Counted from the first letter of the stretch, positions 14,402 to 60,484 are shown. The stretch is DNA of 64,000 nucleotides from Hyphomicrobiales bacterium (GCA_013911885.1 JACESI010000011.1:11409-75408), one strand, 5' to 3'. Program-made: numbers and translations. Notes: generated by a model not told the origin, from the sequence alone.

Positions 14402-14574
14402 GCTTATGCCCTTTCATTCGTGACCATGCCGCCCGCTCATCACCTGTGCCCTAGCATGAAATAGGGCGGGCCTTGACGAATTATCCGACAGGTCTTGTCG
14501 TATTTAGGCAGGACCTCACGATTTCTGATAAATATGGTCCAGACATGTTAGTGCGCAAAGGCGGGATTGGAGAT

Positions 14575-24800: not shown

Positions 24801-24838
24801 CGGAAGTCGATTTCATGGCGAAGAAAGAGGCAGAATGA
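21830..24838 (+). CDS. soxA: Sarcosine oxidase, alpha subunit
   Basis: 1002 aa. Dinucleotide fold DVLIIGAGPAGL and a C-terminal GcvT-like folate domain. Confidence 0.95.
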   Translation: MSTYRLDKGGLIDRTQPVRFSFDGRSQLGFKGDTLASALIANGQHMVARSFKYHRPRGILSAGPEEPAAIVQIGDDPARTDPNIRVTEQEIYAGLSARSQNAWPSLEFDIGRVNDLAWRFLPAGFYYKTFMGPPFGWMNFEPFIRAAAGLGKAPSAPDPDRYEVTNRHCDVLIIGAGPAGLRAADAASAAGARVILCDEGAMLGGQLLSESALTTLNDGTALDFVTETAATIGARDTVTVLTRTTAFGYYGENFIGLWERVSDHLAPSERAARAPRERVWRVRAREVVLATGAIERPIVFHENDRPGIMLASAAQTYAIRYGVLPGRTILTFANNDAAWMNAFVLQDSGARIAGIADARPSVDDALLSQAAARAIPVMQRSAIVGTSGQARVKQALVRSLDSALQPTGAVRPVDCDLILVSGGYNPNVALFSQSRGRLAYDAGLAAFRPAESFQRERSAGSCNGAFSLADCLAEGEAAGRAAAEACGFSTKALAPLALPIRERTASKTYPLWEVPSGGKISRAWVDLQNDVTAKDLKLAVQEGYTSVEHAKRYTTTGMGTDQGKVVGINAFGILAQTMGKSIPEVGVTTYRQPYKPVTFGALAGQHVGPLFHPRRGTPMHEWHREKGAHFETVGEWLRAWVYPKPGESWQRAVQREAKAARTGIGILDASTLGKIDIRGSDAREFLNRVYTNSWTGLAPGRSRYGLMLNEDGMVIDDGVTTCLADDHFHMTTTTGGAAAVLSHLEDYLQTEWTALDVTCVSVTEEWAVASICGPHSPKLIADLFGEGFDPETMPFMSMKETTLAGIPVRLFRISFTGEISYEINIPADYGRWLWEVLMEAGAPYAIAPYGTETMHLLRAEKGFIIVGQETDRTVTPYDLRMDWIVSRKKGDFIGKRSLFRSDTMREDRRQLVGLLTEDGSVVAEEGAQIIATEAEPAPPVPMIGHITSSYYSPNLNRSIALALVKGGGKRMGETVYITRRGAGAPIKAIVAEVDFMAKKEAE

Positions 24839-29461: not shown

Positions 29462-29509
29462 GATCTCGATATGCCGATTTTCAGACGATCCGCAAGGCAA
29501 TCCTCTCGC

Positions 29510-33561: not shown

Positions 33562-35118
33562 ATGGCTGACCCTTCAGAATCGGAGACACCGCAGGCAGGC
33601 CGACGCAGCGGCGGCAGAAACGCGCGCCATGCAGCCCGTATCAGCGGCGCAATGGTCAAGAACTCCTACATAAGGCGCAAGATCCCAGCCTATGAGGTGT
33701 TCGATGAAGAAGGCGTTGCGATCATCGAAAACAACGCCGATATCATTCTGGAAGAGATCGGAATCGAGTTCCGCGATGACCCTGAATCGGTTTCGATGTG
33801 GCGCGCTGCGGGCGCGCATATCGACGGTGAACGCGTTCGCTTTCCGAAAGGCATGTTGCGCGAACTGATCCGCACCGCGCCGCGGGAATTCACCCAGTTT
33901 GCGCGCAATCCGGCCCGATCGGTCCAGATCGGCGGCAACAACACCGTGTTCGCGCCGGTCTATGGCCCGCCTTTCGTGCGCACGCTCGAAGGCGAAAGAC
34001 GCTATGCGACCATTGAGGATTTCCGCTCATTCGTGAAACTCGCCTATCTCGCTCCCGCCATGCACCATTCCGGTGGCACGGTGTGCGAGCCTGTCGATAT
34101 CCCGGTCAACAAGCGTCATCTCGATATGGTCTACAGCCATATCCGCTATTCCGATATGCCGTTCATGGGTTCGGTGACTGCCCCTGAACGGGCGCAGGAT
34201 TCGGTTGATATGGCGAAACTCGTTTTCGGCGCGGATTTTGTCGATCAGAACTGCGTTCTGCTCAATCTCATCAACGTCAACTCGCCGATGACTTATGACG
34301 CGACCATGCTCGGCTCCGCCAAGGTCTACGCCCGCAACAACCAGGCCTGCGTGATTTCGCCGTTCATTCTGGCGGGCGCCATGTCGCCGGTGACGGCGGC
34401 GGCGACCCTGACCCAGATCCTTGCCGAGGCGATGGCGGGTATGGCCTTCACCCAGCTCTGCCGGCCCGGCGCGCCTGTCGTCTTCGGCACATTCGCAAGC
34501 TCGATCTCGATGCAATCCGGCGCACCGACCTTCGGCACGCCCGAACCGGCAATGGTGCTTTATGGCGCAGCCCAGCTTGCCCGACGGCTTGGCGTTCCGT
34601 TCCGTTCAGGTGGCTCGCTCTGCGGGTCCAAAGTCGTGGACGCGCAGGCCGCCTATGAAAGCGCACAGACGATCACCCCGACGCTTCTTGCCGGAACCAA
34701 TTTCGTGCTCCACGCCGCGGGCTGGCTCGAGGGGGGGCTTGTCTCCTCATTCGAGAAATTCGTGATGGATTGCGATCAGCTCGGCATGATGCAGGCAATG
34801 GCGGGCGGCATTGACCTGACGGAAAACGGCCAGGGCCTTTCTGCCTTGCGCGAAGTCGGGCCGGGCGCTCATTTTCTCGGCTGTGCGCACACGCAGGCGA
34901 ATTTCCAGACCGCGTTTTATCGGTCGAGCCTTGCCGACAACAATTCCTATGAGCAATGGCTCGCGGATGGCGAGAACCGGATCGAGGATCGTGCCCGCAA
35001 ATCCTGCCGCAAGATGCTCGACGAATATCAGGCCCCCGCGCTCGATATCGCCGTCGATTCAGCGCTTATCGACTTCATCGACCAGAAAAAGCGCTCGATG
35101 CCCGATGCCTTCACGTGA
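33562..35118 (+). CDS. MttB-superfamily methyltransferase, non-pyrrolysine member (quaternary-amine:corrinoid methyltransferase candidate)
   Basis: Uninterrupted 518-aa ORF with no in-frame TAG. TIM-barrel MttB-like sequence throughout (YEVFDEEG...IENNADIILEEIGIEF..., NSPMTYD, FILAGAMSPVT, GAPTFGTPE). Divergent from the corrinoid-protein operon. Confidence 0.9.
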   Translation: MADPSESETPQAGRRSGGRNARHAARISGAMVKNSYIRRKIPAYEVFDEEGVAIIENNADIILEEIGIEFRDDPESVSMWRAAGAHIDGERVRFPKGMLRELIRTAPREFTQFARNPARSVQIGGNNTVFAPVYGPPFVRTLEGERRYATIEDFRSFVKLAYLAPAMHHSGGTVCEPVDIPVNKRHLDMVYSHIRYSDMPFMGSVTAPERAQDSVDMAKLVFGADFVDQNCVLLNLINVNSPMTYDATMLGSAKVYARNNQACVISPFILAGAMSPVTAAATLTQILAEAMAGMAFTQLCRPGAPVVFGTFASSISMQSGAPTFGTPEPAMVLYGAAQLARRLGVPFRSGGSLCGSKVVDAQAAYESAQTITPTLLAGTNFVLHAAGWLEGGLVSSFEKFVMDCDQLGMMQAMAGGIDLTENGQGLSALREVGPGAHFLGCAHTQANFQTAFYRSSLADNNSYEQWLADGENRIEDRARKSCRKMLDEYQAPALDIAVDSALIDFIDQKKRSMPDAFT

Positions 35119-40462: not shown

Positions 40463-41710
40463 TCAGCCCGTAACCAGAGACATGCTCTGATTGAGCGGCT
40501 CGCGCTTGATGTTCAACTCGAACGCCCTGAGGCGTTTGAACACCGAAATGAGCTCGACGATCCGGGTCCATGAATTGGCGAGGAACTGGAAAGCACCCTC
40601 CACCTGATTGAAGGCGTTCATGACCTGCTGGAACAGGCCGAACGTGATGACGCCGGTGACGATTGTCGGCCCGAGCGCAAAAAATGGAATGAAAACAGAG
40701 CCTTGCAGATAAGCATAGCGCGCGACATTGAAATAGAGATAGTGGAAATAATAGCGGAAATAGAACTTCCGCAGGTTATGAAACAATTGCGCCGCGGTCA
40801 GAGGTTCTGCCCGGTCAGCATGATCCTCGCCATAGACGAGTTCCTTGCGATAGGCAGCTTCGACTTTCTGGTTTTCAAACTCGAGGCCTGGCAGCCTGTA
40901 GCCGACAGCCGCGAGGACAACCGTCCCGAGAAGCGCTGAGAGAATGGCGAGATAAACAAGGCCGCCATTCACCGGTCCGATGAGTGGATATGTGGTGATC
41001 TTCTCAGACAGGGTCAGAAGAAGTGGCAGGAACGCGATCAGCGTCATGATTGAGCGGACAAAGGAAATCCCGAGGGATTCCATGATCGACGAGAAAATCC
41101 GCGTGTCTTCCTGAACACGCTGCGAAGCGCCCTCGATGTGGCGCACATCCTGCCAGTTCTCCATGTAGAAATTGTTCATGGCCATGCGCCAGCGGAACAG
41201 ATAATGCGATGTGAAGAAATCGAGCATGATGATGAAAGTGATATACGGAACCAGCACGAAGGCGGCGGAGGAGAGCTGTAGATAATAATCGCTGATCTGA
41301 ACCGTGTTGGGCGTGGTCAGGGCGTTCTGGATCAGATCATAAAAGCCGCCATACCAGTCGTTCAGCCATACGCTGATCTGGACGTTGAAATAGGTCGAGA
41401 CCATGAGAAAAGCCGAGCCGACGACAGACCACCAGTACCAGATGTTCCGATTGAAAAAGGCCCAGAAAATACAAAAGGCAATCGTCGCCATCAGGATGAA
41501 TTGATAGGTCCAGAGCTTGTCTGCCGAGAAGAAGGGCGGCCGTGTGCCCTCAGGAAGTTCAGCCGGTGCGGGACCAACGAGCAAAGCACCGATATTGATA
41601 TAATTCTTGAGTGTATCGCCGAGTGTGAACCAGAGCACGAAGCAGATTGTCGTCCAGATGACGGCCGACAGGAAAAACAGGCTGGGCACCGGGAAAAAAG
41701 AGCGAAACAA
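40463..41710 (-). CDS. bacA: SbmA/BacA-family inner-membrane peptide transporter
   Basis: 415 aa. Opens MFRSFFPVPSLFF... and has a multi-TM body like rhizobial BacA/E. coli SbmA, with no ATPase domain. Confidence 0.85.
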   Translation of the reverse strand: MFRSFFPVPSLFFLSAVIWTTICFVLWFTLGDTLKNYINIGALLVGPAPAELPEGTRPPFFSADKLWTYQFILMATIAFCIFWAFFNRNIWYWWSVVGSAFLMVSTYFNVQISVWLNDWYGGFYDLIQNALTTPNTVQISDYYLQLSSAAFVLVPYITFIIMLDFFTSHYLFRWRMAMNNFYMENWQDVRHIEGASQRVQEDTRIFSSIMESLGISFVRSIMTLIAFLPLLLTLSEKITTYPLIGPVNGGLVYLAILSALLGTVVLAAVGYRLPGLEFENQKVEAAYRKELVYGEDHADRAEPLTAAQLFHNLRKFYFRYYFHYLYFNVARYAYLQGSVFIPFFALGPTIVTGVITFGLFQQVMNAFNQVEGAFQFLANSWTRIVELISVFKRLRAFELNIKREPLNQSMSLVTG

Positions 41711-41785: not shown

Positions 41786-41821
41786 CCGGAGCTTAGCCCG
41801 GAGCTTAGCCCGGAGCTTAGC
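41786..41821. repeat. Perfect tandem 12-bp repeat x3 (CCGGAGCTTAGC)
   Basis: Read directly. Lies 76-111 nt upstream of the bacA ATG (minus strand) and downstream of the cytochrome b561 gene. Confidence 0.9.
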
Positions 41822-41959
41822 AAGGAAGCGGGCAAGGTAAAGGCTTTTCGCAGCGCGGCTAGTATACCCCACAGCAATCTTGGGTAAGGAAGGAACGCAC
41901 CGGTCACGCGCGCTGCCGTCGATAAACAAGCCTTTACAGGTGGCTGAAACAATGCGCGA

Positions 41960-42502
41960 TCAGGTGCGGGTCATCCGCTGGAACACGCCGTCTTTCTTGA
42001 TCAGAAGATGGTGCAGGGCAGCGAGGATGTGAAGCACCACGAGAACGCCGATCGCCAAGCCGACCCAGCCGTGGATCTCCAGAAGAAACTCCCCCATTTC
42101 TCGGTTCTTTTCGACCAGCATCGGCAGGTTGAAGAGGCCGAAAACCGGAATATTGGCCACCCCCCACATATTCGTCGCATACCAGCCGAGGAGCGGATGG
42201 ACAATGAGCGCGGCGTAGAGAAGAACATGGGTCAGTTTCGCGATCTTCTGTTGCATCGGCGGGATCGACGCGGGCAGGGGTGAAGCCGCCGGGGTTGTAA
42301 GCTTCAGAACGATGCGGATCAGCACGAGGATGAGAAGAACAAAACCCATGCCGCGATGGAAATCATAGAGCTGGCCGCGGAACGGCGGAAAATTGTCGCC
42401 CCATCCCGCATCCACCATGATGATGCCGGCACTGATCATCGCGATGAAAATCACCGCCGTAAGCCAGTGAATAATTCTTATCGGAAGGGAATGCCCGCGC
42501 AT
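41960..42502 (-). CDS. Cytochrome b561 family protein (CybB-like)
   Basis: Start placed at ATG 42502, 6 nt downstream of GAGGTG. About 180 aa with four TM helices and conserved His residues (RIIHW..., DFHRGMG, LEIHGW). Confidence 0.8.
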   Translation of the reverse strand: MRGHSLPIRIIHWLTAVIFIAMISAGIIMVDAGWGDNFPPFRGQLYDFHRGMGFVLLILVLIRIVLKLTTPAASPLPASIPPMQQKIAKLTHVLLYAALIVHPLLGWYATNMWGVANIPVFGLFNLPMLVEKNREMGEFLLEIHGWVGLAIGVLVVLHILAALHHLLIKKDGVFQRMTRT

Positions 42503-42594
42503 GTCAATCACCTCTCGCATTTTCCAGTCGGTCGTCTTGATTGTTAAATCAGCCACCGGATCAGAAAATCAATATAAGGCACGGCGCGATTTGC

Positions 42595-43722
42595 CTATTT
42601 ATATTTCAGCATATGCCCGGACCGTTTTGCCTTTGTCCTGAGGTAATGGCTGTTGTTCTCGTTCATCGGCGCCTGATGCGAAATCCGCTCGACAACATCA
42701 AGACCGTGCGCGCGCAAGGCGTCCACTTTCTTTGGATTGTTTGTCAGGATTGCGACAGACTGCCAGCCGAGGGCGCGCACCATTGTCGCGGCAGCCTGAT
42801 AGTCGCGCATGTCATCGGGAAAGCCGAGTGTGCGGTTCGCGTCGACCGTATCCAGCGACTGGTCCTGAAGGTCATAGGCGCGGATCTTGTTGACGAGGCC
42901 GATGCCACGCCCTTCCTGATCGAGATAAAGAACGGCACCGCCGCCCAGTTCGTCGAGACGCTCGATTGCAAGGCGTAACTGATCGCCGCAATCGCAACGC
43001 TCCGAGCCGAAAAGATCGCCGGTCGCACAGGCCGAGTGAATGCGGATCGGAAGCGGTTTGCTGATATCGGGTTTTCCGACGATGAGCGCGATTTCCGTTT
43101 CTCCGGTCGCATATTGAAACACGACCATGCGGGTGTTGATGCCGCCGCGCACGGGGATCGGCGCTTCGCTCTTGCGGCGCAGGCTGCGGGTCTTCGCGGC
43201 TTGATAAGCCTCAACGGATGCTTTCTCGATCACGGTGATGCCTTCGCTTGCAAGCGCGCCTGCATTCGGCACATCGGCATAGAAAAGGCAGGCCGGGATA
43301 AGCCGCGCCTTGATCAGAAGATCGAGAGCGGGCCGGGCGTCCGGCTGTTCGAAAACAGGCCGGCGGCTCACCTTGGCCGGATGTTTGGCGGCGATGGCAT
43401 AAAGCTTCTCCGGCGTGTCGCCCGGCGCAATCGACATCGAAATCGGGGCCAGCTTATCAAAGCCGAGCGCGTCACCGCGCTCCGAACTCACGATCAAAAG
43501 CGGGCTGCGACCGGGGTAGCGGCGCATGAAGGCTGCGAAGGTCTGCTCCGACATCCCGTCCACGCCCAGGCAAAGATGAAAATCATCCTCATCCTTGATC
43601 AGGAAAGGCTCACCAAGCCGAATCGCGGCAATTGCGATCGCTACCGAAAAAAGCGCTTCGTGATCGGTTTTCGCATCATTCTGCGCAACAGAAACGAGAG
43701 AACTTTCAAGTTTGAAGGTCAT
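42595..43722 (-). CDS. GTP cyclohydrolase II homolog with degenerate N-terminal RibB-like domain
   Basis: C-terminal half carries the GCH II zinc/catalytic region IRIHSACATGDLFGSERCDCGDQL...YLDQEGRGIGLVNKIRAY. The N-terminal 170 aa or so lack obvious DHBP-synthase motifs. It is not in a canonical rib operon. Confidence 0.8.
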   Translation of the reverse strand: MTFKLESSLVSVAQNDAKTDHEALFSVAIAIAAIRLGEPFLIKDEDDFHLCLGVDGMSEQTFAAFMRRYPGRSPLLIVSSERGDALGFDKLAPISMSIAPGDTPEKLYAIAAKHPAKVSRRPVFEQPDARPALDLLIKARLIPACLFYADVPNAGALASEGITVIEKASVEAYQAAKTRSLRRKSEAPIPVRGGINTRMVVFQYATGETEIALIVGKPDISKPLPIRIHSACATGDLFGSERCDCGDQLRLAIERLDELGGGAVLYLDQEGRGIGLVNKIRAYDLQDQSLDTVDANRTLGFPDDMRDYQAAATMVRALGWQSVAILTNNPKKVDALRAHGLDVVERISHQAPMNENNSHYLRTKAKRSGHMLKYK

Positions 43723-43982
43723 GAATTGGGTACGTCCATTTTCGTAGTTTTAATTGAAACCGTGCGCGGTGTCGACAAGGGGGAGACTTGAATAATGGGC
43801 TTGGTTCAACGTTTGGTGTTCGGTTTGGTTGCATCTCTGGTTCTGGGAGTTGTAGACAAGGAAACGAGACCATGAATGGGCGTCTGGACAGGCCGGAAAC
43901 TATATCCAAATGTCTGAATGCAACATGAATGCCATGTCATGGTGAATTCATAAACCGATCAAAGCTGAACGGCTGAAATATA

Positions 43983-44732
43983 ATGGAAATTAGACACAAA
44001 GAGACCGGCAGCGAAACAGCCCGTCTGGCGCAGAACGGCAGTCCCGCAAGCGGTTTCAGGCTTGGCAGTGGTGATCCGCTCGCGGACTTGCGTTCGCGGT
44101 CACACTTTGTGATCGGCCAGCTCGGTCAGTCTTTGGACGGCCATATCGCGACCCGAACCGGCCATTCGAAATATATCAACGATTCGCGCGGTCTTACCCA
44201 TCTTCACGCCCTGCGCGGGACGGTTGATGCGGTTCTGGTCGGTGTGGGCACCGTCAATGACGATGACCCGCTTCTAACCGTGCGCCTGTGTGCGGGCAAA
44301 AGCCCGGCGCGGGTGATTGTCGATCCGAAGGGGCGCGTCTTTGCCGATGCGCGCCTTTTTTTCGATGGGGGCCCCGAGACGTTCATTCTGACGGATGAGG
44401 CGCTCTCCCATCCGCTCAGCGAATCAGTGCGGATCATCGGTCTGCCCTGCGAGAATGGCCGCCTTGATCCGGCATTGATGATTGCGGCGCTTCATGATGC
44501 CGGCTTCAAACGGATTCTGGTGGAAGGCGGCAGCCGTACCTTGTCAGCCTTCATTGATCGCGGTTGCCTCGACCGGCTTCACCTCATCATCGCGCCGATG
44601 CTGATCGGTGGGGGCTATCAGGGCCTCAATCTCTCGGCGGTCAGCACTGTTGATGCGGCCCTCCGCCCGGCGGTGACGCTTTATCACCTCGGCCACGATA
44701 TTCTTTGTGATTGCGTCTTTAATACCGGCTGA
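43983..44732 (+). CDS. RibD C-terminal (pyrimidine reductase/DHFR-like) domain protein, no deaminase domain
   Basis: 249 aa. QSLDGHIATRTGHSKYI...LRGTVDAVLVGVGTVNDDDPLLTVR...ILVEGG match the reductase-domain pattern. Confidence 0.75.
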   Translation: MEIRHKETGSETARLAQNGSPASGFRLGSGDPLADLRSRSHFVIGQLGQSLDGHIATRTGHSKYINDSRGLTHLHALRGTVDAVLVGVGTVNDDDPLLTVRLCAGKSPARVIVDPKGRVFADARLFFDGGPETFILTDEALSHPLSESVRIIGLPCENGRLDPALMIAALHDAGFKRILVEGGSRTLSAFIDRGCLDRLHLIIAPMLIGGGYQGLNLSAVSTVDAALRPAVTLYHLGHDILCDCVFNTG

Positions 44733-45536
44733 TCATCGCCCGCCCGGTAAGGCGAGAAAATCGCGATGACCGACAAAGACGCTGGCCCCGTTTGCTGCAT
44801 CGCGGAGAAACGCTTTGCGATGATTGAACCATGCACCGAAGTCATCGGCGAGATCGGGCCTGATTTCGCTTGCGGCTGCGCGCCAGCCATCAAGCAGCAT
44901 GGCCTGAAAGGCCGCATGGTCGGGTCCGGCCTGCCAGTCCGAGAGGCCGCTGACAATCCTGTATCCGGCGTCTTCAAAACACGCGACCGCCGTCTCCGCC
45001 GCGCGGGGGCCAAGGGCGGGGCCGAAGCCCTTGTCGCCTCGCTGGTGCGCATTGAAGGCGTCGAGCACGATCGCATCGGCTGGCAGCGGCGGCACACAAC
45101 CCGCCCGCCCGTCATAGCTGAGGGCTGCGTAAAATGGCACTTGCCGATCGGCAAGCGCTGCGACGAGTTTGCCGATCCATGCCTCTGACACGAGGTCGAG
45201 AAACGCGGAGGTGGTGACGAGGTCAGCCGGTTTTTCAAAAATTGCATCGAGTGAAACCGAAAGATCGGCCTGTGCCATCGTTACCGGCAGGCCGCCTGCC
45301 TCGCGGCTTGCGACGGCAAGAAGTTCGGCATCGTAGTCGACGAGGTGCCAGGTTGCCGCCCTGGGCAGCACCGGCGCCAGAGCCCGAAGGGTTGAGCCCG
45401 TGCCGCTGCCGATGTCGGTCGGGCGTGCGGGTGCGCTGTTTACCAGAAGATCGCGCACCATCTCCAGAACATCCGTGTTGCGCGCCGCATGGTCTATCGG
45501 CTCGCGCAGGGAGAGCCATTCAGCCGAAAAACCCAT
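44733..45536 (-). CDS. Class I SAM-dependent methyltransferase
   Basis: 267 aa with motif I DIGSGTGS. Its ATG shares one nt with the upstream GT stop (TGATG). Confidence 0.75.
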   Translation of the reverse strand: MGFSAEWLSLREPIDHAARNTDVLEMVRDLLVNSAPARPTDIGSGTGSTLRALAPVLPRAATWHLVDYDAELLAVASREAGGLPVTMAQADLSVSLDAIFEKPADLVTTSAFLDLVSEAWIGKLVAALADRQVPFYAALSYDGRAGCVPPLPADAIVLDAFNAHQRGDKGFGPALGPRAAETAVACFEDAGYRIVSGLSDWQAGPDHAAFQAMLLDGWRAAASEIRPDLADDFGAWFNHRKAFLRDAANGASVFVGHRDFLALPGGR

Positions 45537-46609
45537 CAGATTGCCTCCAGTATCGAGAGAAAATCACGCGCCGAGCTGCCCCAGCCAGGGAAATCCGGCG
45601 CCGAGGCGATGGCGCCAGCCTGTTTCCCTTGCCGCAGCGCATCGTCAGAAAGCATGGCAAAAAGCGCCTCCGCAAGCGCTGGAACATCGTCGGGTGGCAC
45701 GAGAAGACCCGCCACCTCTGGCACTGTATCCGGGATTGCACCGGCGCGGGTCGCAATCACCGGCAGGCCGCGCACAATCGCCTCGGCATAGACCATGCCA
45801 TAGCCCTCAAACCGCGAGGCAAGGGCGAAGACATCGGCATCATCATAAAACCGCTCCAGGGTTTTTTCATCGACGGCGCCATGGAACGTGATCTGCCCGG
45901 CAATCCCGTGCTCTTTTGCCATGGCCTTGAGTCTTTCGAACAGAGGCGGATTGAATTCCGGCGCGCCGAGAAGATCAAGATGCCAGGAGAGCAACGGATC
46001 ACGGGCGTGAACCGCGCCAAGGGCAGCGATCATCAAATCATGGCCTTTGCGCTCCGAAATCGAGCCGACCGAGAGAATGCGCAAGGGGCGGCGCGTGCGA
46101 AAACGGCGTGTCTCTTCACGCGCCGACCCTGCACGGCGTTCGACACCGGGAAGAATTGCATGAATCTCGCTGAGCGGCCGCTGAAAGATCTGGTGCACCG
46201 CAGCGCGCGTCGCCGGACTTGTGGTAATGATCAGGCGTGCCGCCGCTAGACCCTCTGCTTCAAGCGCAAGAAGACGCTTTCCAGCTTCCTCGTCGAGACC
46301 GCTTTCAAGGCCAAGCGGATGATGCACGAGCGCCACGACCGGCAATTCCTGCGCGAGGCGGTGCATCAGGGCCGGTGAACAGCCGCCCGCAAGCCCGTCG
46401 ATCACGGCAATATCGGCAGGCGCGCAGCCCGCAATGATCGCAAGCGCCGTCTCTCGCGCCTTGTCTGTCGGATCGGGATAGGAACCGGGAAGACTGACGA
46501 GATCGACGTCGACACCCTCCCGCCGCCATTCGGCGATGATTGCCCGGTCATAACGATAACCGCCGGTTGGCGTGTCGATATCGCCCGGAATGATGAAGCG
46601 TATCCGCAT
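45536..46609 (-). CDS. Glycosyltransferase, GT-B fold group 1 (GT4-like)
   Basis: 357 aa. C-terminal EX7E-type motif (SRFEGYGMVYAEAIVRGLPVIAT). Confidence 0.85.
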   Translation of the reverse strand: MRIRFIIPGDIDTPTGGYRYDRAIIAEWRREGVDVDLVSLPGSYPDPTDKARETALAIIAGCAPADIAVIDGLAGGCSPALMHRLAQELPVVALVHHPLGLESGLDEEAGKRLLALEAEGLAAARLIITTSPATRAAVHQIFQRPLSEIHAILPGVERRAGSAREETRRFRTRRPLRILSVGSISERKGHDLMIAALGAVHARDPLLSWHLDLLGAPEFNPPLFERLKAMAKEHGIAGQITFHGAVDEKTLERFYDDADVFALASRFEGYGMVYAEAIVRGLPVIATRAGAIPDTVPEVAGLLVPPDDVPALAEALFAMLSDDALRQGKQAGAIASAPDFPGWGSSARDFLSILEAI

Positions 46610-46644
46610 GGCGCCCTTTTCGCGGCTCGTTCTGGCTTTATGTC

Positions 46645-47046
46645 CTAGATTGCCGCTTCATACCAGGCGCGGGCGACATGGCTTTCCGAAATTGTCACCC
46701 TGATCGCGGCGAGTTCGTCCGCCGGGCGGCCCAGCCGGTTTTCGCGCGCCGCCTTGGCAAGGTGTGTCCAGATATATTTCGTAAGGAATTCGGTCGTGGT
46801 GTTTTCGCCTTTAAATTCCTCGACCTCATCAAGATTTTTGTAATTGATGGGCTGCAAAACCGCCTTCAGCGCCTCATGCGCCGCGCCGATATCGATCACC
46901 ACATTGGTGCCTTTATCGAGGGTCTGCGAAAGGAAACACGCATCGACGACGAAAGTTGCGCCATGCATGGCCTGAGCGGGCCCGAAAAATTCGCCCTTGA
47001 AGGAATGAGCGATCATGATGTGGTCGCGAACTTCTACTGCATGCAC
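46645..47046 (-). CDS. 6-pyruvoyl-tetrahydropterin synthase (COG0720/QueD) family protein
   Basis: I prefer GTG 47046, 7 nt downstream of GGAGA and after the upstream stop. This gives 133 aa, against the track ATG 47103 which overlaps the upstream gene by 38 nt. PTPS-like His pattern (IAHSF...MHGATF). I did not see the catalytic Cys of classical PTPS. Confidence 0.7.
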   Translation of the reverse strand: MHAVEVRDHIMIAHSFKGEFFGPAQAMHGATFVVDACFLSQTLDKGTNVVIDIGAAHEALKAVLQPINYKNLDEVEEFKGENTTTEFLTKYIWTHLAKAARENRLGRPADELAAIRVTISESHVARAWYEAAI

Positions 47047-47065
47047 GATAGTATCTCCGGGTTGA

Positions 47066-48115
47066 TCAGGCGCGGTTCGTGGCGTTATTGCCGTAATCGA
47101 CAATCTGGCAGAGTGCGCGGCTTGCGGGGCCTAGGACGCGGTCTAGATGGTCTGGAAGGTCCATAAAGCCTATTTCGGGTTCGAGCAATTCATCGAGGGC
47201 GGAATCTTCAAGATAACCCATCGCCTCCCGCATCCGGCCGTCATAATCCATGGTTGCGCGCCGTGCCGGGCTGACATGGCCGACCTGACTTGCGATGATC
47301 TGGAGCCTTTGCGAATGAAACGCACCGCCAAGGGCAAGCGTGACGGGCTTGTCGCCATACCAGCTCATCTCGATGATCCGGCCTTCGAACCCGGCAAGGC
47401 CGATGGCGGTTTGCAGGCCCGACCCCGTTGCGCTGGTGTGGAACACGGTGTCGACGCCGCCAGCAGCACTTTCCGGCAGGCTGAATTCAAGCCCGAGTGC
47501 GGCTGCAACCGCCGCGCGATCCGCGTTGATATCGACAAGCGTCACCGGCTCGCCAGTCACCCTGCGGGCGAGGTAGGCGGTCAGAAGGCCGACAACGCCG
47601 CCACCCACGACGGTGGCCTTCATGCCCGGTGCGAGCGCCGCATCCCAGATTGCATTGAGCGCGGTTTCCATATTGGCTGAAAGCGTCGCGCGGGCGGGCG
47701 GAACGCCGTCCGGGATCCGTCGTGCGCTTGCCGCCTCGACCACGATCCGGGTCTGATGCGGATGCAGCACGAAAACAGTGTCGCCCACCTGAAGATCGCG
47801 CACCGCGGTGCCGACGGCACATATCCGCCCGACCAGAGCGTAGCCATAGGATACTGGAAAGGGAAATGTCCCGACCTGATGCGGACAGCGCATGCGCTGC
47901 CATTCCGATTGCGGCACTTTTCCAGCGAAAACGAGGCTTTCCGTGCCGCGGCTGATACCTGATTTGAGCGTGTCGATGACGACTTGACCAGCCCCCGGCC
48001 CAGCCCCTGGCTGAGGCAGTGGCGCATGCTCTATCCCGCCAATGCCCGGGCTTCGATATACCAGTCTCAATGCGGTCACGTGGCTCGCGCTTTCGTGAAT
48101 AAGCCGTTCAGGCAC
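47066..48115 (-). CDS. Medium-chain dehydrogenase/reductase (zinc-ADH-like; BchC-like)
   Basis: 349 aa. Rossmann VVGGGVVGLL. The usual catalytic-zinc GxCxxD/H region reads GISRGTES, so zinc ligands may be absent. Confidence 0.75.
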   Translation of the reverse strand: MPERLIHESASHVTALRLVYRSPGIGGIEHAPLPQPGAGPGAGQVVIDTLKSGISRGTESLVFAGKVPQSEWQRMRCPHQVGTFPFPVSYGYALVGRICAVGTAVRDLQVGDTVFVLHPHQTRIVVEAASARRIPDGVPPARATLSANMETALNAIWDAALAPGMKATVVGGGVVGLLTAYLARRVTGEPVTLVDINADRAAVAAALGLEFSLPESAAGGVDTVFHTSATGSGLQTAIGLAGFEGRIIEMSWYGDKPVTLALGGAFHSQRLQIIASQVGHVSPARRATMDYDGRMREAMGYLEDSALDELLEPEIGFMDLPDHLDRVLGPASRALCQIVDYGNNATNRA

Positions 48116-48260
48116 AATTCATTTTCACTTCGCTATTACACAGCGGAACCTGAAGGGGTGGCTGCCGTTATCCTGCGAGTGAGCAGGTTGATCCCGGCGC
48201 TGTCAACATCTTTTGAAGGTCAGTTTTGCGCTCTTTCTGATTGCGATGAGGTTTTTCAAT

Positions 48261-50093
48261 ATGACGCCCACAACCAGACGAATGACTTTCGCGAGTCTCG
48301 TGATCGCGACCATTGTGGGGCTTTTGTCCCTTATGGCCTGGTCCTTCTCGGAAGCGGGATATGCGCCATTCGAGTGGGTATTGCTCGTCTGTTTCGCGCT
48401 CACCCTGCCATGGACCGCGATTGGTTTCTGGAATGCCGTGATCGGCTTTGTTTTGTTGCGTTTCACCAAAGACCCGGCGACAGCGGTGTTTCCCGCCGCA
48501 GCGTCCATCACGGGCAATGAACCGATCAGAAAATCGACCGCGATCGCCATGTGCATCCGCAACGAGGACGTGAGCCAGGTATCGCGCAACCTGACCGCCA
48601 TGATGGCGCGCCTTGTTGCATCCGGCACTGCGAAAAACTTCCACATCTACATTCTGAGCGACAGCTCGCAAGTGCCGGTGATTGCCGAAGAGCGCACGGT
48701 TTTCGAACAGCTGCGCCGCGATTGGGCGGGCAAAATCGACGTCACGTATCGCCTGCGCACCGACAACTGGGGCTTCAAGGCAGGCAATATCCGCGAGTTC
48801 TGCGATCGCTGGGGCGTGAACCACGACTTCATGCTGACCCTCGATGCAGACAGCGTGATGTCGGCTTCCGCCATACTACGCCTTGTTCGCATCATGCAAG
48901 CGAACAACAATATCGGCATTCTCCAGAGCCTCGTTGTTGGTCTTCCGTCAGACAGTGCCTTTGCCCGCGTCTTCCAGTTTGGCATGCGCATGGGCATGAA
49001 ATCCTACACGTTGGGCAGCGCCTGGTGGCAGGCAGATTGTGGTCCGTACTGGGGTCACAACGCCCTGATCCGCCTTGAGCCGTTCATGGAGCATTGCCAC
49101 CTTCCGGTTCTGCCCGGCAAAGGCCCGCTCTCCGGCTATATTCTGAGTCATGATCAGGTCGAGGCCACCTATATGCGCCGTGCGGGTTATGAAGTGCGCG
49201 TTCTTGCGGAAGAGGGGGGTTCCTACGAGGAAAACCCGCCGCATATTCTCGAGTTCATCCGCCGCGACCTGCGCTGGTGCCATGGCAACATGCAGTATCT
49301 GAAACTGCTTGGCGAACCTGGCCTGAAGCCGACAAGCCGTGTGCAACTCTTCCTCGCGATCCTGATGTTTGTCGGATCGCCGGCATGGATGGTCTTTGTC
49401 TCGGTTGCGACCGCTTCGGTGATTTTCTCCGAGCGCACATTCGACGGTTTCAAAATGGGGCCAGGCTATGCGCTCTTCCTGATCATCATGTTTATGATTT
49501 TCGCACCGAAACTTGCCTCGATTGTCGACATGGTGTCGCGTTCGTCGCTTCGCCGCGACTATGGCGGTTTCATTCCGGTCGTCACGGGCGCGGCAATTGA
49601 ATTGGTCTTTTCGATGCTGCTCGCGCCAATCATGGCGGTCGCGGAAACCATCTTTCTTGCCGGCCTTCCGTTTGGCCGGGCGCGCGGATGGGCCGCACAG
49701 AACCGTCAGGCTCAGTCGCTTCCGGCGCTTGTCGTGGCGCGCCACCTCTGGCCTCAGATGCTGTTCGGTATGGTTGGCGTCGGCGCACTTCTGGGAACTG
49801 GAACCGTCGGTCTGACCGGCTTTCTGGTCAGCCTGCCGGTTTTCATCGGTCCGCTCCTTGCAATCCCGTTCGGCTATTCGAGCGCACAGGTCTCTATCGG
49901 ACAGTTGTTTACCCGGATCGGCCTGTGGCAGGTACCGGAAGAAGAAAAGCCGCCGGTCATCATCCGTGCGATCCATCTTCCAGCGCTGGCGCTGCGCGCT
50001 GGTGCGATTGGTGACAGCGAAAGCCGCGCCCCTCTATCGACGCAACAATTGCTTGATATCGACGGAGAAATGGATGATCGTCTCGCCGCATAG
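48261..50093 (+). CDS. opgH: Glucans biosynthesis glucosyltransferase H (OpgH/MdoH, GT2)
   Basis: Start trimmed to ATG 48261. Multi-TM GT2 with DADS, QSLV and RWCHGNMQ signatures typical of OpgH. Confidence 0.85.
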   Translation: MTPTTRRMTFASLVIATIVGLLSLMAWSFSEAGYAPFEWVLLVCFALTLPWTAIGFWNAVIGFVLLRFTKDPATAVFPAAASITGNEPIRKSTAIAMCIRNEDVSQVSRNLTAMMARLVASGTAKNFHIYILSDSSQVPVIAEERTVFEQLRRDWAGKIDVTYRLRTDNWGFKAGNIREFCDRWGVNHDFMLTLDADSVMSASAILRLVRIMQANNNIGILQSLVVGLPSDSAFARVFQFGMRMGMKSYTLGSAWWQADCGPYWGHNALIRLEPFMEHCHLPVLPGKGPLSGYILSHDQVEATYMRRAGYEVRVLAEEGGSYEENPPHILEFIRRDLRWCHGNMQYLKLLGEPGLKPTSRVQLFLAILMFVGSPAWMVFVSVATASVIFSERTFDGFKMGPGYALFLIIMFMIFAPKLASIVDMVSRSSLRRDYGGFIPVVTGAAIELVFSMLLAPIMAVAETIFLAGLPFGRARGWAAQNRQAQSLPALVVARHLWPQMLFGMVGVGALLGTGTVGLTGFLVSLPVFIGPLLAIPFGYSSAQVSIGQLFTRIGLWQVPEEEKPPVIIRAIHLPALALRAGAIGDSESRAPLSTQQLLDIDGEMDDRLAA

Positions 50094-53986: not shown

Positions 53987-54014
53987 GTGGATCTATGAGA
54001 TCCACGGTTTTTAC
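53987..54014 (+). terminator. Rho-independent terminator after the ThDP enzyme gene
   Basis: GTGGATCT-atg-AGATCCAC followed by GGTTTTTAC. Confidence 0.6.
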
Positions 54015-54124
54015 TTGTGAGATTCAGGAATTCGGCAGATAAAGCAGTAATAAAATTCCTTTCGATATAAGGATTGCCAATTCTATAATTAAATGCTGAA
54101 AAATATTTTTAATAAAGGTGGCCT

Positions 54125-55288
54125 GTGAAGCTCTTTAATAAAATAAAATCTAAATATCAATTGGTCTCCTCCCTGAAATATATACGATTTTCAACGCTTA
54201 CACGCCCTATGATTGCTGTAAAGCCTCTTGAAACTAGAATTGCATCGCATAAAATAAATATTGGTGACGATTTTTTATTGCGTGTGCAGGAATGTTACAA
54301 GCGTGCCACGAAAGATTATCAGAGCAACACAAAAAGCATGTGGCATGATTTAGAGGATAAAAATGCTGATTTTATAGCAGCGCTTTTATCAGATAGCCCA
54401 GAGAAACTGAGAAATTATGCTGAAAACCTATATTCAGGTAATTTATTGATGGGAATGGGCCATGTTCAAGGCTTCATACATGGTAAAAAAACAATATATC
54501 CCAAGAAATATTTTTCCTTACGTATAATTGATGCAACACTTTTGCTGGCAGAGGCTTTGGGTGTGAATTCACTGCCATCCAATCAGCAAACATCATGGGA
54601 TAATTATATCAGATATATGAACCAGGATCTTTCTGAAATCATATCTGAAGTCGAAAATATTCTTGGATATCAAATATCAACGAAAGAAATTGGATGTCCG
54701 CCAGTGGCTGAAATTGGAGATAGGCTCTTTAATCCAGATTTTATTCGCCATGCATATATCATGCACAGAATAGAACAAATTGGAATCGATAAGGATGCGA
54801 ATATTCTTGAAATAGGTGGAGGATATGGCTGCGTCGCTTACTTTGCAAATCTTAAAGGCTATAAAAATTATCATATAATCGACTTGCCTTATGTAAATGC
54901 GATTCAAATGTTGTTCCTTGGAGCGGCGCTCGGGCCAAATAATGTAAGTGGATATGGCGAGGAGAAATCAAGTATACAATTAATACCTAGTAACGAAAAA
55001 ATGAATATTTTAAAAAAGAGTTTTGATTTAGCACTTAACATGGATTCCTTGCCCGAAATTGCCGAGGAAGAAGCAATTCAATATATGCAATTAATTGAGC
55101 GGACGTCAAAATGCTTGATTTCTATCAATCAGGAGGCGCAAAAAATCTATAAAAACATGGGAGAACAAAACCTGGTTCGCAACCTGGTCCGAGTAAACGC
55201 GCCCAGTTTAAAATTATCATCTCGGCAAAAATACTGGATGGAACAAGGTTATGCGGAAGAAATATACCAAAATACGTCAAGAAAGTAA
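54125..55288 (+). CDS. SAM-dependent methyltransferase (resembles 'putative sugar O-methyltransferase' family) in an AT-rich insertion
   Basis: 387-aa ORF with motif I ILEIGGGYG. AT-rich Lys/Asn/Ile-biased codon usage unlike all neighbouring genes. The start (GTG 54125) is uncertain; ATG 54209 is an alternative. Confidence 0.6.
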   Translation: MKLFNKIKSKYQLVSSLKYIRFSTLTRPMIAVKPLETRIASHKINIGDDFLLRVQECYKRATKDYQSNTKSMWHDLEDKNADFIAALLSDSPEKLRNYAENLYSGNLLMGMGHVQGFIHGKKTIYPKKYFSLRIIDATLLLAEALGVNSLPSNQQTSWDNYIRYMNQDLSEIISEVENILGYQISTKEIGCPPVAEIGDRLFNPDFIRHAYIMHRIEQIGIDKDANILEIGGGYGCVAYFANLKGYKNYHIIDLPYVNAIQMLFLGAALGPNNVSGYGEEKSSIQLIPSNEKMNILKKSFDLALNMDSLPEIAEEEAIQYMQLIERTSKCLISINQEAQKIYKNMGEQNLVRNLVRVNAPSLKLSSRQKYWMEQGYAEEIYQNTSRK

Positions 55289-55376
55289 TCTAATATTATT
55301 GTAGAGAAGCAAATGTGAAGCCGTGGGGCGTCGGATCGCCCGGTGTCATTTCAATCCGCATCACCCGCGTTTTCGC

Positions 55377-55847
55377 TCACTCTACTACCTGATCGTGGAT
55401 TGCCTTGAACACGGTGTCGAGCTCACCGGCCATTGCCTTCAGATCGGGTTTGGCATCAGCGAAATAGGGGGAAAAGACGGTGGTCGGGGTCTTGTAGGAG
55501 AGTGTCGATGTGCCGTCGGCGTTTTCGGTGAGATAGAACCGGATTGGCGCCTCGATGCCGGCGGGAATGCTTGCTTCCAGCATTCTCACCGCCCAGACAT
55601 TGTTGTAGACGCCGACGACCCGGTTGCCCGGAATGACGATGTTGCGGCCCTTCGCGCCGAGGGTGGCGCTTGCGGTCGTGATTTCACCCATTTTATGGGC
55701 GGCGATGGCCTGCTGTAGCCGCGGATAAAGCGCCTCGTAGGGATATTTTGTCTTGGTGATGATCCAGCCTTCGCGCGGCGTGATCTCGCCTGCGAGGGCT
55801 GAAACCGGCAGGAGAATTAAGGCGAAGACGACCGATAAAATGCGCAT
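55377..55847 (-). CDS. DUF302 domain-containing periplasmic protein
   Basis: Start trimmed to ATG 55847 (MRILSVVFALILLPVSALA signal peptide). DUF302-like body (GNRVVGVYNNVWAVRMLE...). Begins 25 nt downstream of yeeE. Confidence 0.8.
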   Translation of the reverse strand: MRILSVVFALILLPVSALAGEITPREGWIITKTKYPYEALYPRLQQAIAAHKMGEITTASATLGAKGRNIVIPGNRVVGVYNNVWAVRMLEASIPAGIEAPIRFYLTENADGTSTLSYKTPTTVFSPYFADAKPDLKAMAGELDTVFKAIHDQVVE

Positions 55848-55872
55848 GGGATGATCCTCCAGCAAGAGTGGT

Positions 55873-57105
55873 TCACAGATTGAAACGCGCCTTGGTGCGA
55901 ATGCCAAGCACGCTTCCGACAAAACCGAAGATCAGCCACCACCAGCCATGCATGGAGCCGGACACGAGGCCGCCGAGATAAGCGCCGATATTGCAGCCAT
56001 AAGAAAGCCGCGCGCCATAGCCCATCAAAAGCCCGCCGAGGATTGCGGTGAAGAGGTCGCGCGCGCTGATCCTGAGCGCCGGCTTCCATTTTCCGGCAAG
56101 GCCGGCGGCAATCATCGCGCCCAGAATGATGCCGAAATTCATCAAAGATGTGGCGTCGGCGAAAACGGAACGGCTGAGGGCTTCAGCACTCCAGGCAGGC
56201 CAGCTTGCAACTGGTATGCCGACGGAATCGAACATTTTAGCGCCCCAGAACGCAAATCCCGATGTGATGCCCCAGGGCCGGTGCAGCACGATGAGTGTTC
56301 CAATCGAGACGACGACGAGGGCAAGTGCGCCGAGACGCTTCGACCATATGCCGGTGAGGAGACTTTCGGTTCGGCCAAGGCCCTCGATTGCGCCCCATTG
56401 CCTTTTCTCGATCAGGATCGAGCCGAAATAGATCGCAGCGAGAACCGGCAGAAAGATCGCGAGCGCCCCGGGCGCGCCAAAGATCTCAACGAACGAGAAT
56501 GGCGCGAAATGCGGCAGGCCCTGCCAGAAATCGATATCGTGGGTGCCGAGCACGGAGCCGATGATGAAGAAGAAAAGCGTGATCATCATGCGGCTTGAGC
56601 CGCCGCCGGAGGTGAAAAGGGTGCCGGAAGCGCAGCCGCCGCCGAACATCATGCCGAAACCGAACATGAACGCGCCGATCGCGGAGCCCATGCCCCAGGG
56701 ATTGACGAAACCATGGGTCTCAAGGCTCCATGTCTGCCCGCCAAACCAGGGCAGTGAGACGAACCGGCCGTAATCGAGAAGCAGGAAAGACATCGAACAT
56801 GTGAGGGCGACGAGCATCATCTGTGCACGCAGACCATTGCCACGCCGCTCCACCACCATGCGCCGCCATGCCGCCGTGAAGCCGAACGAGGCATGGTATA
56901 GCGCGAAACCGGCAAAGCCGCCGACCATGACCGCGCCGACATGATTGACCGGCCCGTTCTGGAACGCGAGAAAGGCGAGATAGGCAAGGCACAAAAGGCC
57001 GATCGCAATCACCAATCCCTGTTTTCTCGGAAGCAGCGGCAAAGCCCCTGGGGGATGCGGTGCGCCCTTTACATTGTAATCTTGAATATGCGCGAAGTTT
57101 GCCAT
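55873..57105 (-). CDS. YeeE/YedE family inner-membrane protein (thiosulfate/sulfur-compound transporter family)
   Basis: 410 aa, highly hydrophobic. Repeated GGCASG / YGCNIG-type motifs characteristic of YeeE/YedE. Confidence 0.85.
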   Translation of the reverse strand: MANFAHIQDYNVKGAPHPPGALPLLPRKQGLVIAIGLLCLAYLAFLAFQNGPVNHVGAVMVGGFAGFALYHASFGFTAAWRRMVVERRGNGLRAQMMLVALTCSMSFLLLDYGRFVSLPWFGGQTWSLETHGFVNPWGMGSAIGAFMFGFGMMFGGGCASGTLFTSGGGSSRMMITLFFFIIGSVLGTHDIDFWQGLPHFAPFSFVEIFGAPGALAIFLPVLAAIYFGSILIEKRQWGAIEGLGRTESLLTGIWSKRLGALALVVVSIGTLIVLHRPWGITSGFAFWGAKMFDSVGIPVASWPAWSAEALSRSVFADATSLMNFGIILGAMIAAGLAGKWKPALRISARDLFTAILGGLLMGYGARLSYGCNIGAYLGGLVSGSMHGWWWLIFGFVGSVLGIRTKARFNL

Positions 57106-59068: not shown

Positions 59069-60484
59069 ATGAATGAACTTTCGACGCGCCGTTCGATGAG
59101 TGGCCTTGCTGTTTCCTCGGATGCCAGGGGCGATTTGATTGGCCGTGATCAGAAACCGTTCGCAGCGCCGCCGGCGAAACGTCCGCGTGATCTTCGCCTC
59201 GATTTCTTCCGCGGTATCGCGATGTTCATCATCCTGATTGCGCATATTCCGTGGAATGACTTGAACCTCTGGATTCCGGCGCGTTTCGGCTTTTCCGATG
59301 CGACAGAAATTTTCGTTTTCTGCTCGGGTATGGCCTCGGCCATCGCTTTTGCCTCAATATTCGACAAGCATGGCTGGTTCATGGGCGTCGCCCGTGTCCT
59401 CCACCGGGTATGGCAGGTCTATTGGGCTCATATCGGCATGTTCCTCGCGGTCTGCGTCTGGGTCTCGTTCATGGACGTACTCGCCAACCAGGGCGATTAC
59501 CTCAAGCACGATCTCAACCTCATGCCTTTTTTCCAGGCGAATACGGCACAACAGTTGCTGGGGCTTTTCACGCTCACTTATGTGCCGAACTATTTCGACA
59601 TCCTGCCAATGTATCTGGTGATCCTGCTGATGATCCCCCTTGTCATGGGCATTGCAAGAATCTCGCCGAAAGCGGCGCTCGCCTTCTGCGCCATGCTGTG
59701 GCTTGCGACGAATATAGAGACCTATATCAACGTGGCAAACGGGTCGCATTTGGCGTGGCTGCGTTTTTATGCGGAGCCATGGAACAATCCGGGCTGGCTC
59801 ACCTGGTATAATCAGGGCAATATATCGCCGGAAGCGCTTGCCGCTTTGCAGCCGCGTTTCTGGTTCTTCAATCCGTTTGGCTGGCAGCTGATTTTCTTTA
59901 CCGGCTTTGCGTTCATGCGCGGCTGGATTCCGAAACCTCCCGTCAACAAGGCGCTCATCTGGACCGCTGCCGCTTTTCTCATTCTATCGCTGCCGTTTGC
60001 CTATTATCGCGTTTTCGAGGGCGCTTTCTGGAACAAGGAAATCAATGATTGGGTGCTTTCTTTCGGGATTGCGGAACTGCGCGCCAAATATGACTGGCTG
60101 ATCTGGAAGAGCGACCTCGGCATCATCCGCTATGTGCATTTTCTCTGTGTTGGTTATCTCGCCTGGGTTGCCTGCGGCGAAAACGGCAAGCACCTTGCCG
60201 GCGACAATATCTGGGGCCGGACCGTCACCGTGATCCGCACCGTGGGTCAGCAGTCGCTTGCGATCTTCCTGTTCTCGATGGTCTCGGCGCGCATTCTCGG
60301 CTACACATTCGTCCCGCAAGCCGGCCATCCGTTCCACATCACCGATGTGCAAAGCGATTGGCGCTGGCTGCACACATTGATCATCAATGTTGCTGGCATC
60401 ATCCTGCTCATTCTGGTCGCCTATATGGTCGCCTGGTTCAAGAAGCAGCCGTGGCGAAACCCGCCCGCGCCGAAAGCGGCGTGA
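59069..60484 (+). CDS. opgC: OpgC family membrane acyltransferase-like protein
   Basis: 471 aa, about 10 TM helices. RDLRLDFFRGIAMFIILIAHIPWN...FSDATEIFVFCSG is the typical OpgC N-terminal signature. Confidence 0.75.
   Translation: MNELSTRRSMSGLAVSSDARGDLIGRDQKPFAAPPAKRPRDLRLDFFRGIAMFIILIAHIPWNDLNLWIPARFGFSDATEIFVFCSGMASAIAFASIFDKHGWFMGVARVLHRVWQVYWAHIGMFLAVCVWVSFMDVLANQGDYLKHDLNLMPFFQANTAQQLLGLFTLTYVPNYFDILPMYLVILLMIPLVMGIARISPKAALAFCAMLWLATNIETYINVANGSHLAWLRFYAEPWNNPGWLTWYNQGNISPEALAALQPRFWFFNPFGWQLIFFTGFAFMRGWIPKPPVNKALIWTAAAFLILSLPFAYYRVFEGAFWNKEINDWVLSFGIAELRAKYDWLIWKSDLGIIRYVHFLCVGYLAWVACGENGKHLAGDNIWGRTVTVIRTVGQQSLAIFLFSMVSARILGYTFVPQAGHPFHITDVQSDWRWLHTLIINVAGIILLILVAYMVAWFKKQPWRNPPAPKAA

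Follow-up and report, generated by a model that had tools for sequence, protein, structure and literature searches.

A widespread gene cluster that may lead from GTP to a glycosylated, methylated heterocycle handed over at the membrane

We analysed a cluster of six genes at positions 42595-48115 of a 64,000-nt stretch of Hyphomicrobiales bacterium DNA (JACESI010000011.1:11409-75408; "the window" hereafter means this whole stretch). A first reading made from the sequence alone (the "sequence-only reading") had taken the genes for an orphan cluster that makes a glycosylated and methylated heterocycle from guanosine triphosphate (GTP), a pterin- or ribityl-pyrimidine-like product. Our results suggest, with a rough probability of 0.45, that the cluster is the OpgH-type version of a widespread system that converts GTP into a glycosylated, methylated heterocycle and hands the product over at the membrane. 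The argument draws on the linkage of the genes across phyla, on two mutually exclusive membrane enzymes encoded next to the core operon, and on the residues kept and lost in the enzymes that would handle the ring. The genes concerned are as follows.

42595..43722, minus strand: GTP cyclohydrolase II (GCH II) paralogue of 375 aa, with a degenerate RibB-like N-domain and a GCH II domain (PF00925)
43983..44732, plus strand: stand-alone RibD_C reductase of 249 aa (PF01872)
44733..45536, minus strand: class I S-adenosylmethionine (SAM) methyltransferase (MT; Methyltransf_25, E 6e-7)
45536..46609, minus strand: GT4 retaining group 1 glycosyltransferase (PF13692, E 1.9e-30)
46645..47046, minus strand: SCO6650-family T-fold protein of 133 aa, similar to 6-pyruvoyltetrahydropterin synthase (PTPS; PF01242, E 1.2e-19)
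47066..48115, minus strand: medium-chain dehydrogenase/reductase (MDR) oxidoreductase, BchC-like/polyol-dehydrogenase-like (BchC, 62.8 bits)
48213..50093, plus strand: OpgH/MdoH-type membrane glucosyltransferase (NCBIfam MdoH models), divergent from the MDR gene
41960..42556, minus strand: cytochrome b561 (PF01292)

Conserved linkage and the membrane partner

A pattern scan with one genome per species found the T-fold family encoded in at least 596 species-representative genomes, and an exhaustive HMMER search returned 602 representative clusters of the family at E <= 1e-10. Co-location was counted by tblastn of the window proteins against the 80 best species-level loci. The denominators are the loci whose contig covers the relevant flank, and 55 loci were fully covered. 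The other genes of the core operon lie near the T-fold gene in most of these loci (MDR in 67/73, GT4 in 72/74 and MT in 65/71). RibD_C adjoins the core operon in 52/67 loci and GCH II in 29/64. In the fully covered set, RibD_C and GCH II are both present in 26 of the 55 loci; 16 have RibD_C alone, 13 have neither, and GCH II never occurs by itself.

The loci come from Alpha-, Beta- and Gammaproteobacteria, Acidobacteriota, Longimicrobiales and Streptomyces, and those of Methylosinus trichosporium OB3b, Agrobacterium tumefaciens and Thiodictyon are plasmid-borne. Linkage of the six-gene set across Alphaproteobacteria, which the sequence-only reading had put forward as a check on its proposal, was found and extends to other phyla. 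Gene order is sometimes rearranged between species and the genes stay near each other; given these rearrangements and the differing flanking genes, the linkage is not inherited synteny. Two earlier claims need revision. All six genes are present, but six is too small a number, as OpgH and cytochrome b561 are also conserved members. The cluster is not an orphan either, having a counterpart in the Streptomyces coelicolor locus around SCO6650/SCO6655, with crystal structure 3D7J. The accompanying claim that no described pathway accounts for the cluster agrees with our literature searches, in which no paper describing it was found.

Conserved neighbours were identified by de novo clustering of all locus ORFs (open reading frames), followed by family searches on the recurrent groups. 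OpgH occupies the divergent position in 49/66 loci. In the fully covered loci, the divergent partner is OpgH in 38 cases and a CDP-alcohol phosphatidyltransferase, with PgsA and PIP synthase as best matches, in 11; no locus has both and six have neither. The window OpgH passes two MdoH models, NF003958 with 539 bits (cut-off 419) and NF003962 with 487 bits (cut-off 328), and its true start is possibly the ATG at ~48262. Neither a CDP-alcohol phosphatidyltransferase nor a flippase-like gene was found in the window, where OpgH takes that place. Phosphatidyltransferase-type loci, such as those on A. tumefaciens pAt and in Thiodictyon and Streptomyces, bring a sulfatase-type membrane transferase and a flippase-like protein. 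In Thiodictyon, genes for cytochrome b, a RibD family protein and the phosphatidyltransferase follow directly after the MT gene in the same direction. OpgH-type loci often carry an NdvA/ChvA-type glucan exporter (832 bits, above the cut-off; 15/61 loci) and an FkbM methyltransferase (31/63), and occasionally OpgC (4/60). Cytochrome b561 is encoded inside the cluster in 24/64 loci, frequently with MT on one side and RibD_C on the other. A creatininase-family gene is present in the Streptomyces loci and in 10/60 proteobacterial loci.

Proteins of marine algae link part of the set in another way. Polarella glacialis CAE8707138 and a metagenomic eukaryote protein from JGI combine PTPS-like, HAD-type hydrolase, MT and MDR domains in one chain (the fusions are P0244/P0396 and P0224, respectively). 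The MT domain of the fusions is homologous to the cluster MT (hhalign probability 97.9%, E 4e-13), and their MDR domain belongs to the cluster MDR family (31% identity). No membrane enzyme is part of these proteins. Because the domains are fused in dinoflagellate and other eukaryote proteins, we conclude that the T-fold protein, MDR and MT act together independently of the bacterial neighbourhood. In haptophytes (P0124, Emiliania/Gephyrocapsa), three tandem PTPS-like domains precede ~420 aa that lack a Pfam match.

The arrangement of the window genes is as first described: six ORFs occupy the coordinates that the sequence-only reading had given, Pfam and NCBIfam agree on their families, 19 nt separate the MDR and PTPS-like genes and 35 nt the PTPS-like and GT4 genes, the GT4 and MT genes overlap by 1 nt, and GCH II and RibD_C are divergent with 260 bp between them. 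The stop codons of the convergent MT and RibD_C genes abut (44733/44732), and the cytochrome b561 gene lies 38 nt downstream of the GCH II gene on the same strand. Negative results on gene content at the locus refer to 36-54 kb of the window, and within this range riboflavin synthase and lumazine synthase were not found. The locus is unlike the canonical rib operon, as had been claimed, since the RibB half of its GCH II is degenerate and since a deaminase, RibE, RibH and an FMN riboswitch are missing at the locus. Rfam at gathering score gave no match in the whole window, including the FMN riboswitch, and at E <= 1 on 41800-48400 it gave no riboswitch. Promoter and terminator scans returned counts equal to the shuffled expectation. 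In 17 loci, the intergenic regions between RibD_C and GCH II are 56-493 bp; being short and variable in length, they make a conserved leader RNA unlikely. The GC content of the cluster is not strongly different from that of the rest of the window.

Some further genes near the cluster, or near its relatives, can be mentioned here. A 471-aa ORF at 59069-60484 (plus strand) is 47% identical to an OpgC-family protein that lies within the cluster of some species. This OpgC homologue is ~9 kb from OpgH; PF10129 is detected in the homologue at locus L054, and the window copy has no NCBIfam match. Just past the cytochrome b561 gene, a SbmA/BacA-family transporter is encoded at 40463-41710 (minus strand). 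It is syntenic in the closest relative (L004) only, and so it probably lies outside the system. At two kinds of loci without RibD_C and GCH II, other gene sets of an envelope type follow the operon: in Labrenzia sp. THAF82 (L001/L002, 12573-18408), a HAD-UbiA fusion, FAD_binding_4 (DprE1-like), an epimerase and an aminotransferase, and in a Rhodobacterales locus (L005, 12658-18486), a carrier protein, an acyl-CoA dehydrogenase and a tRNA-synthetase-like set.

Residues kept and lost in the cluster enzymes

The length of the T-fold protein (133 aa) was set by comparison with its homologues. The protein belongs to PF01242 and matches structures of PTPS and QueD (E 1e-4 to 1e-8). Aligned to C. elegans PTPS (2G64), it has Ala in place of the catalytic Cys, for which the sequence-only reading had already seen no evident candidate; HGH has become HGA, the Asp-His pair has become Asn-Tyr, and two of the three zinc His are left. 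Each of the 26 diverse members in the alignment likewise lacks the catalytic Cys (now an invariant Ala24), the Asp-His pair and one zinc His. In the same members, T85 and E86 of the TTTE motif, the pair that anchors the 2-amino-4-oxo ring, are invariant. The family profile matches PDB entry 3D7J ("uncharacterized protein SCO6650" of S. coelicolor) at E 4e-59, and the window protein is 54% identical to SCO6650.

The family may correspond to the COG0720 subfamily PTPS-V, an unconfirmed assignment; the function of PTPS-V was described as "still unclear" in a 2016 review (PMC5041015). PGAP names the T-fold gene 6-carboxytetrahydropterin synthase on OB3b pOB3b1, A. tumefaciens pAt and Thiodictyon pTs417, and it names the cluster GCH II gene RibA; two of the three plasmid records give the T-fold gene a queuosine GO term as well. 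As the QueD catalytic Cys and one zinc His are absent, the 6-carboxytetrahydropterin synthase label is almost certainly wrong and looks like a systematic misannotation.

In the GCH II paralogue, the GCH II domain spans residues 183-347 of 375 (PF00925, E 1.2e-53), and NF006456 aligns over 19-373 with a score under its cut-off. The zinc and catalytic region was correctly read as intact, with the equivalents of E. coli C54/C65/C67, R128 and Y105 all kept. The equivalent of E. coli E53 is Ala, which turns the HSEC motif into HSAC. This HSAC, by the first zinc Cys, is also seen in most alphaproteobacterial cluster-linked copies. The N-domain is RibB-like and degenerate, as proposed: a profile of the N-terminal 180 aa matches RibB crystal structures (E 7.5e-7), and the domain is considered dead because RibB's acidic RENEGD stretch falls in an alignment gap. 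PF00926 was not detected in the paralogue, and BLASTP of the N-domain against an approximate sequence of E. coli RibB was not significant (E 0.29), so that the profile was needed to bring out the homology. At the Tyr/Met position, which the sequence-only reading had singled out for inspection of specificity, the canonical type II Tyr is found in the window copy and in 31/31 proteobacterial copies; among the cluster-linked copies compared, Met is found only in Streptomyces. The ten creatininase-bearing loci likewise have a GCH II with the canonical Tyr.

The RibD_C protein (PF01872, E 1.5e-37) stands alone, without a deaminase domain, in agreement with the earlier description, and its alignment to full-length RibD begins at about RibD residue 137. 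Its closest PDB matches are archaeal 2,5-diamino-6-ribosylamino-pyrimidinone-5'-phosphate reductases (2AZN, E 4e-25; 6P8C, E 9e-24), which act before deamination.

The MDR protein scores under the Pfam cut-offs of both alcohol dehydrogenase domains, and its best NCBIfam match is BchC. Its lack of the zinc-ligand motif is supported by a by-eye reading of the alignment, in which the Cys/His/Glu positions correspond to invariant SRGTE and YGY. The Rossmann domain is closest to polyol and alcohol dehydrogenases and has a GGGVVG motif followed by an acidic residue; the enzyme is probably NAD-dependent, to judge from its sequence. The GT4 glycosyltransferase and the SAM methyltransferase were both identified as before, the latter through weak class I matches only. 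The MT forms a distinct family with an invariant N-terminal W-L-x-L-R...D motif in the alignment, and PDB profile searches with it gave nothing beyond generic class I matches.

A proposed pathway and its alternatives

On this basis we propose a pathway in five steps. GCH II, whose catalytic residues are in place, would open GTP to 2,5-diamino-6-ribosylamino-4(3H)-pyrimidinone 5'-phosphate. The archaeal-type RibD_C would then reduce the ribosyl to a ribityl chain without deamination and keep the 2-amino-4-oxo (guanine-like) face; the 2-amino group should be retained because RibD_C is nearest to the archaeal reductases and because a deaminase is absent. Next, the NAD-type MDR may oxidise a side-chain hydroxyl, and the T-fold protein may bind the 2-amino-4-oxo ring and, with no metal required, bring about a ring closure or rearrangement. 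A 7,8-dihydropterin with a phosphorylated trihydroxypropyl chain could arise in this way, for instance, if a 2'-keto group condensed with N5. GCH I reaches the same dihydropterin chemistry by an Amadori rearrangement, and the HAD domain of the algal fusions is consistent with a phosphorylated polyol intermediate. As their families imply, GT4 would add a sugar and MT a methyl group. The product would finally pass to the divergently encoded membrane transferase, OpgH here and a PgsA/PIP-synthase-like phosphatidyltransferase elsewhere. The heterocycle might then reside at the outer membrane face or in the periplasm, and the gene neighbourhood makes cytochrome b561 a possible redox partner.

An outer-face or periplasmic product is suggested jointly by the mutually exclusive membrane transferases, the flippase-like protein, the glucan exporter and cytochrome b561, and this placement in the envelope is the model's weakest point. 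A more far-reaching version, which we regard as unlikely, has a new class of GTP-derived heterocycle placed in the envelope, either as a primer or substituent of OpgH glucans or as a new phospholipid head group. In the lipid variant, the PgsA-like enzyme would make the lipid, the flippase-like protein would flip it and the sulfatase-type enzyme would transfer its head group onward. The same version would imply an extracytoplasmic pterin- or flavin-like cofactor common to many bacteria, with cytochrome b561 as its redox partner. Marine algae share only the PTPS-like/MT/MDR core, without the membrane enzymes.

Several points weigh against the pathway as a whole. The core occurs with neither GCH II nor RibD_C nearby in 13/55 loci (e.g., in Roseibium, Bosea and Methylobacterium), and thus the link to GTP is not obligatory in cis. 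SCO6650 is reportedly a T-fold hexamer that contains no zinc, shows no PTPS activity and has no ligand bound, which makes pterin or pyrimidine binding by the family conjectural. RibD_C proteins can also serve as dihydrofolate reductase (DHFR)-like pterin reductases, and one of them, Rv2671, is among the PDB matches of the window protein. An OpgG/MdoG-like family was not found among the conserved neighbours or in 36-54 kb, and the adjacency of OpgH could reflect co-regulation instead of a shared product. No riboswitch or shared regulatory motif emerged from the Rfam and promoter/terminator scans. Reduction at C1' followed by re-oxidation at C2' is an indirect route to a pterin, and the product, be it a pterin or a ribityl-pyrimidine, is an inference.

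The alternative that fares best, though we think it rather improbable, is a soluble cytoplasmic pterin glycoside like cyanopterin, tepidopterin or limipterin, with OpgH, the phosphatidyltransferase and cytochrome b561 co-regulated or merely coincidental. It could be reached by a dihydroneopterin-type route independent of FolE (GCH II, RibD_C, MDR and the T-fold protein), or with RibD_C acting as a DHFR-like dihydropterin reductase, a role that the Rv2671 match would fit. Cyanobacterial and Chlorobium pterin glycosides are made by group 1 glycosyltransferases of about GT4 size, and cyanopterin carries an O-methyl sugar. The pterin-anchoring Glu retained in the T-fold protein and the algal fusions without a membrane enzyme are also in line with a soluble product. 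Such a product leaves unexplained, however, why a membrane transferase is encoded divergently in 49/55 loci across phyla, in two mutually exclusive forms. The co-directional cytochrome b, RibD family and phosphatidyltransferase genes after MT in Thiodictyon make chance hard to invoke.

It is less probable still that the locus joins two unrelated units, with GCH II and RibD_C (plus creatininase where present) forming an alternative early riboflavin branch and MDR, T-fold, GT4, MT and OpgH an envelope-glycan operon whose substrates would be sugars or lipids and not a product of GTP. Rhizobiales do have a second riboflavin branch with a creatininase-family formamidase, BrbF (PMC9478397), but a deaminase-less RibD_C is unable to complete the bacterial riboflavin route, and neither rib genes (36-54 kb) nor an FMN riboswitch were found. 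The 13/55 loci without GCH II and RibD_C would be expected of separable units; the linkage in the other 42, across phyla and despite rearrangements, would not, and the Streptomyces cluster carries GCH II too. The glucan genes nearby (OpgH, the NdvA-type exporter, OpgC and FkbM) suit a glycan operon. Against sugar or lipid substrates, the characterised T-fold enzymes all have, to our knowledge, a purine or pterin ring as their target, and this family invariably keeps the anchoring Glu.

A horizontally acquired, specialised cluster that makes a toxoflavin-type (azapteridine) toxin or antibiotic, for which the use of GCH II, a RibD-type enzyme and a SAM methyltransferase in such clusters and the plasmid copies might speak, is highly improbable, as the locus has no deaminase for a uracil-type intermediate and no ToxC/ToxD-like genes, the GC content does not stand strongly apart from the window, and the family is highly conserved in sequence in at least 596 species and reaches algae.

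Relation to described systems and significance

The closest relative of the proposed GTP-to-heterocycle system is the SCO6650 locus of Streptomyces coelicolor/lividans, which shares the order MDR - PTPS-like - GT4 - MT and has a GCH II paralogue a few genes off. That locus differs in having a short GCH II with Met, a creatininase-family gene, a divergent CDP-alcohol phosphatidyltransferase and a flippase-like membrane protein, whereas the window combines RibD_C, OpgH and cytochrome b561 with a GCH II that has Tyr and a dead RibB domain. RibD_C is present in the window and was not seen in the two Streptomyces loci, one of which has an assembly gap. SCO6655 is reportedly (Spoonamore et al. 2006) a variant of GCH II whose reaction ends at the formamido-pyrimidine because Met takes the place of Tyr.

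The first steps resemble the archaeal start of riboflavin and F420 synthesis (ArfA, a GCH III; ArfB, a formamide hydrolase; ArfC, a reductase) and the BrbF branch, in that ring opening, optional deformylation and reduction before deamination are alike. Here, in contrast, the T-fold protein, MDR, GT4 and MT follow, and a deaminase, lumazine/riboflavin synthase and CofG/H are absent. The creatininase family includes the deformylases ArfB and BrbF, which act on AFRPP (PMC9478397), and the window itself has no creatininase gene. With the canonical rib operon (ribD-ribE-ribBA-ribH plus FMN riboswitch), the window shares a GCH II domain with intact residues and the RibD_C fold. PTPS, QueD and PTPS-III (COG0720) have the Pfam family, the T-fold and the Thr-Glu motif in common with the window protein, which, like every member of its family, has lost the catalytic Cys, the Asp-His pair and one of the zinc His residues.

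Pterin glycoside pathways (PgtA/BGluT) also combine a group 1 glycosyltransferase of ~350 aa with pterin-type enzymes, a likeness by description. These pathways begin from GCH I, true PTPS and sepiapterin reductase; GCH I and true PTPS are absent from the window cluster. Among envelope systems, the phosphatidylinositol mannosides (PgsA/PIP synthase plus the GT4 enzyme PimA) resemble the phosphatidyltransferase-type loci with their GT4, flippase-like and sulfatase-type genes, and the periplasmic glucans (OpgH/OpgB/OpgC) resemble the OpgH-type loci with NdvA-type exporter, OpgC and FkbM. No system of either kind is known with GCH II, RibD_C or a T-fold protein.

Four other pathways were examined and set aside: queuosine/7-deazaguanine synthesis for want of QueC/QueE and of the catalytic residues of QueD, F420/FO synthesis for want of CofG/H, methanopterin synthesis for want of RFAP synthase, and toxoflavin synthesis for want of a deaminase and of ToxC/ToxD.

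Away from the cluster, the GC content falls sharply to 0.43 at 54001-56000, against ~0.58 elsewhere in the window. This stretch contains a 387-aa ORF (54125-55288, plus strand) with no Pfam match and, given both features, may be foreign DNA. A dense group of methylated-amine and one-carbon genes lies outside the conserved cluster at 14473-17088, 21830-24838, 27419-29500 and 33562-35118. They encode a DAO-GCV_T fusion of the dimethylglycine-dehydrogenase type, a sarcosine oxidase alpha subunit, a RACo corrinoid activator and an MttB-family methyltransferase, and two of these genes have GCV_T folate-binding domains.

What is new in the cluster is a possible pathway to a GTP-derived heterocycle in which familiar families occur in an undescribed combination. 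For genome annotation, the routinely assigned QueD and RibA labels distort reconstructions of the queuosine and riboflavin pathways. The strictly alternative membrane partners, OpgH or a phosphatidyltransferase, and the presence of cytochrome b561 point to lipid extracts and periplasmic glucans as places to look for the product, and Methylosinus trichosporium OB3b, Roseibium aggregatum, Agrobacterium tumefaciens and Streptomyces coelicolor are tractable hosts. Solving the cluster could also settle the purpose of SCO6650 and SCO6655. A gene set that is found in at least 596 bacterial species and in dinoflagellate fusions suggests that a widespread GTP-derived metabolite or cofactor is missing from current pathway maps.

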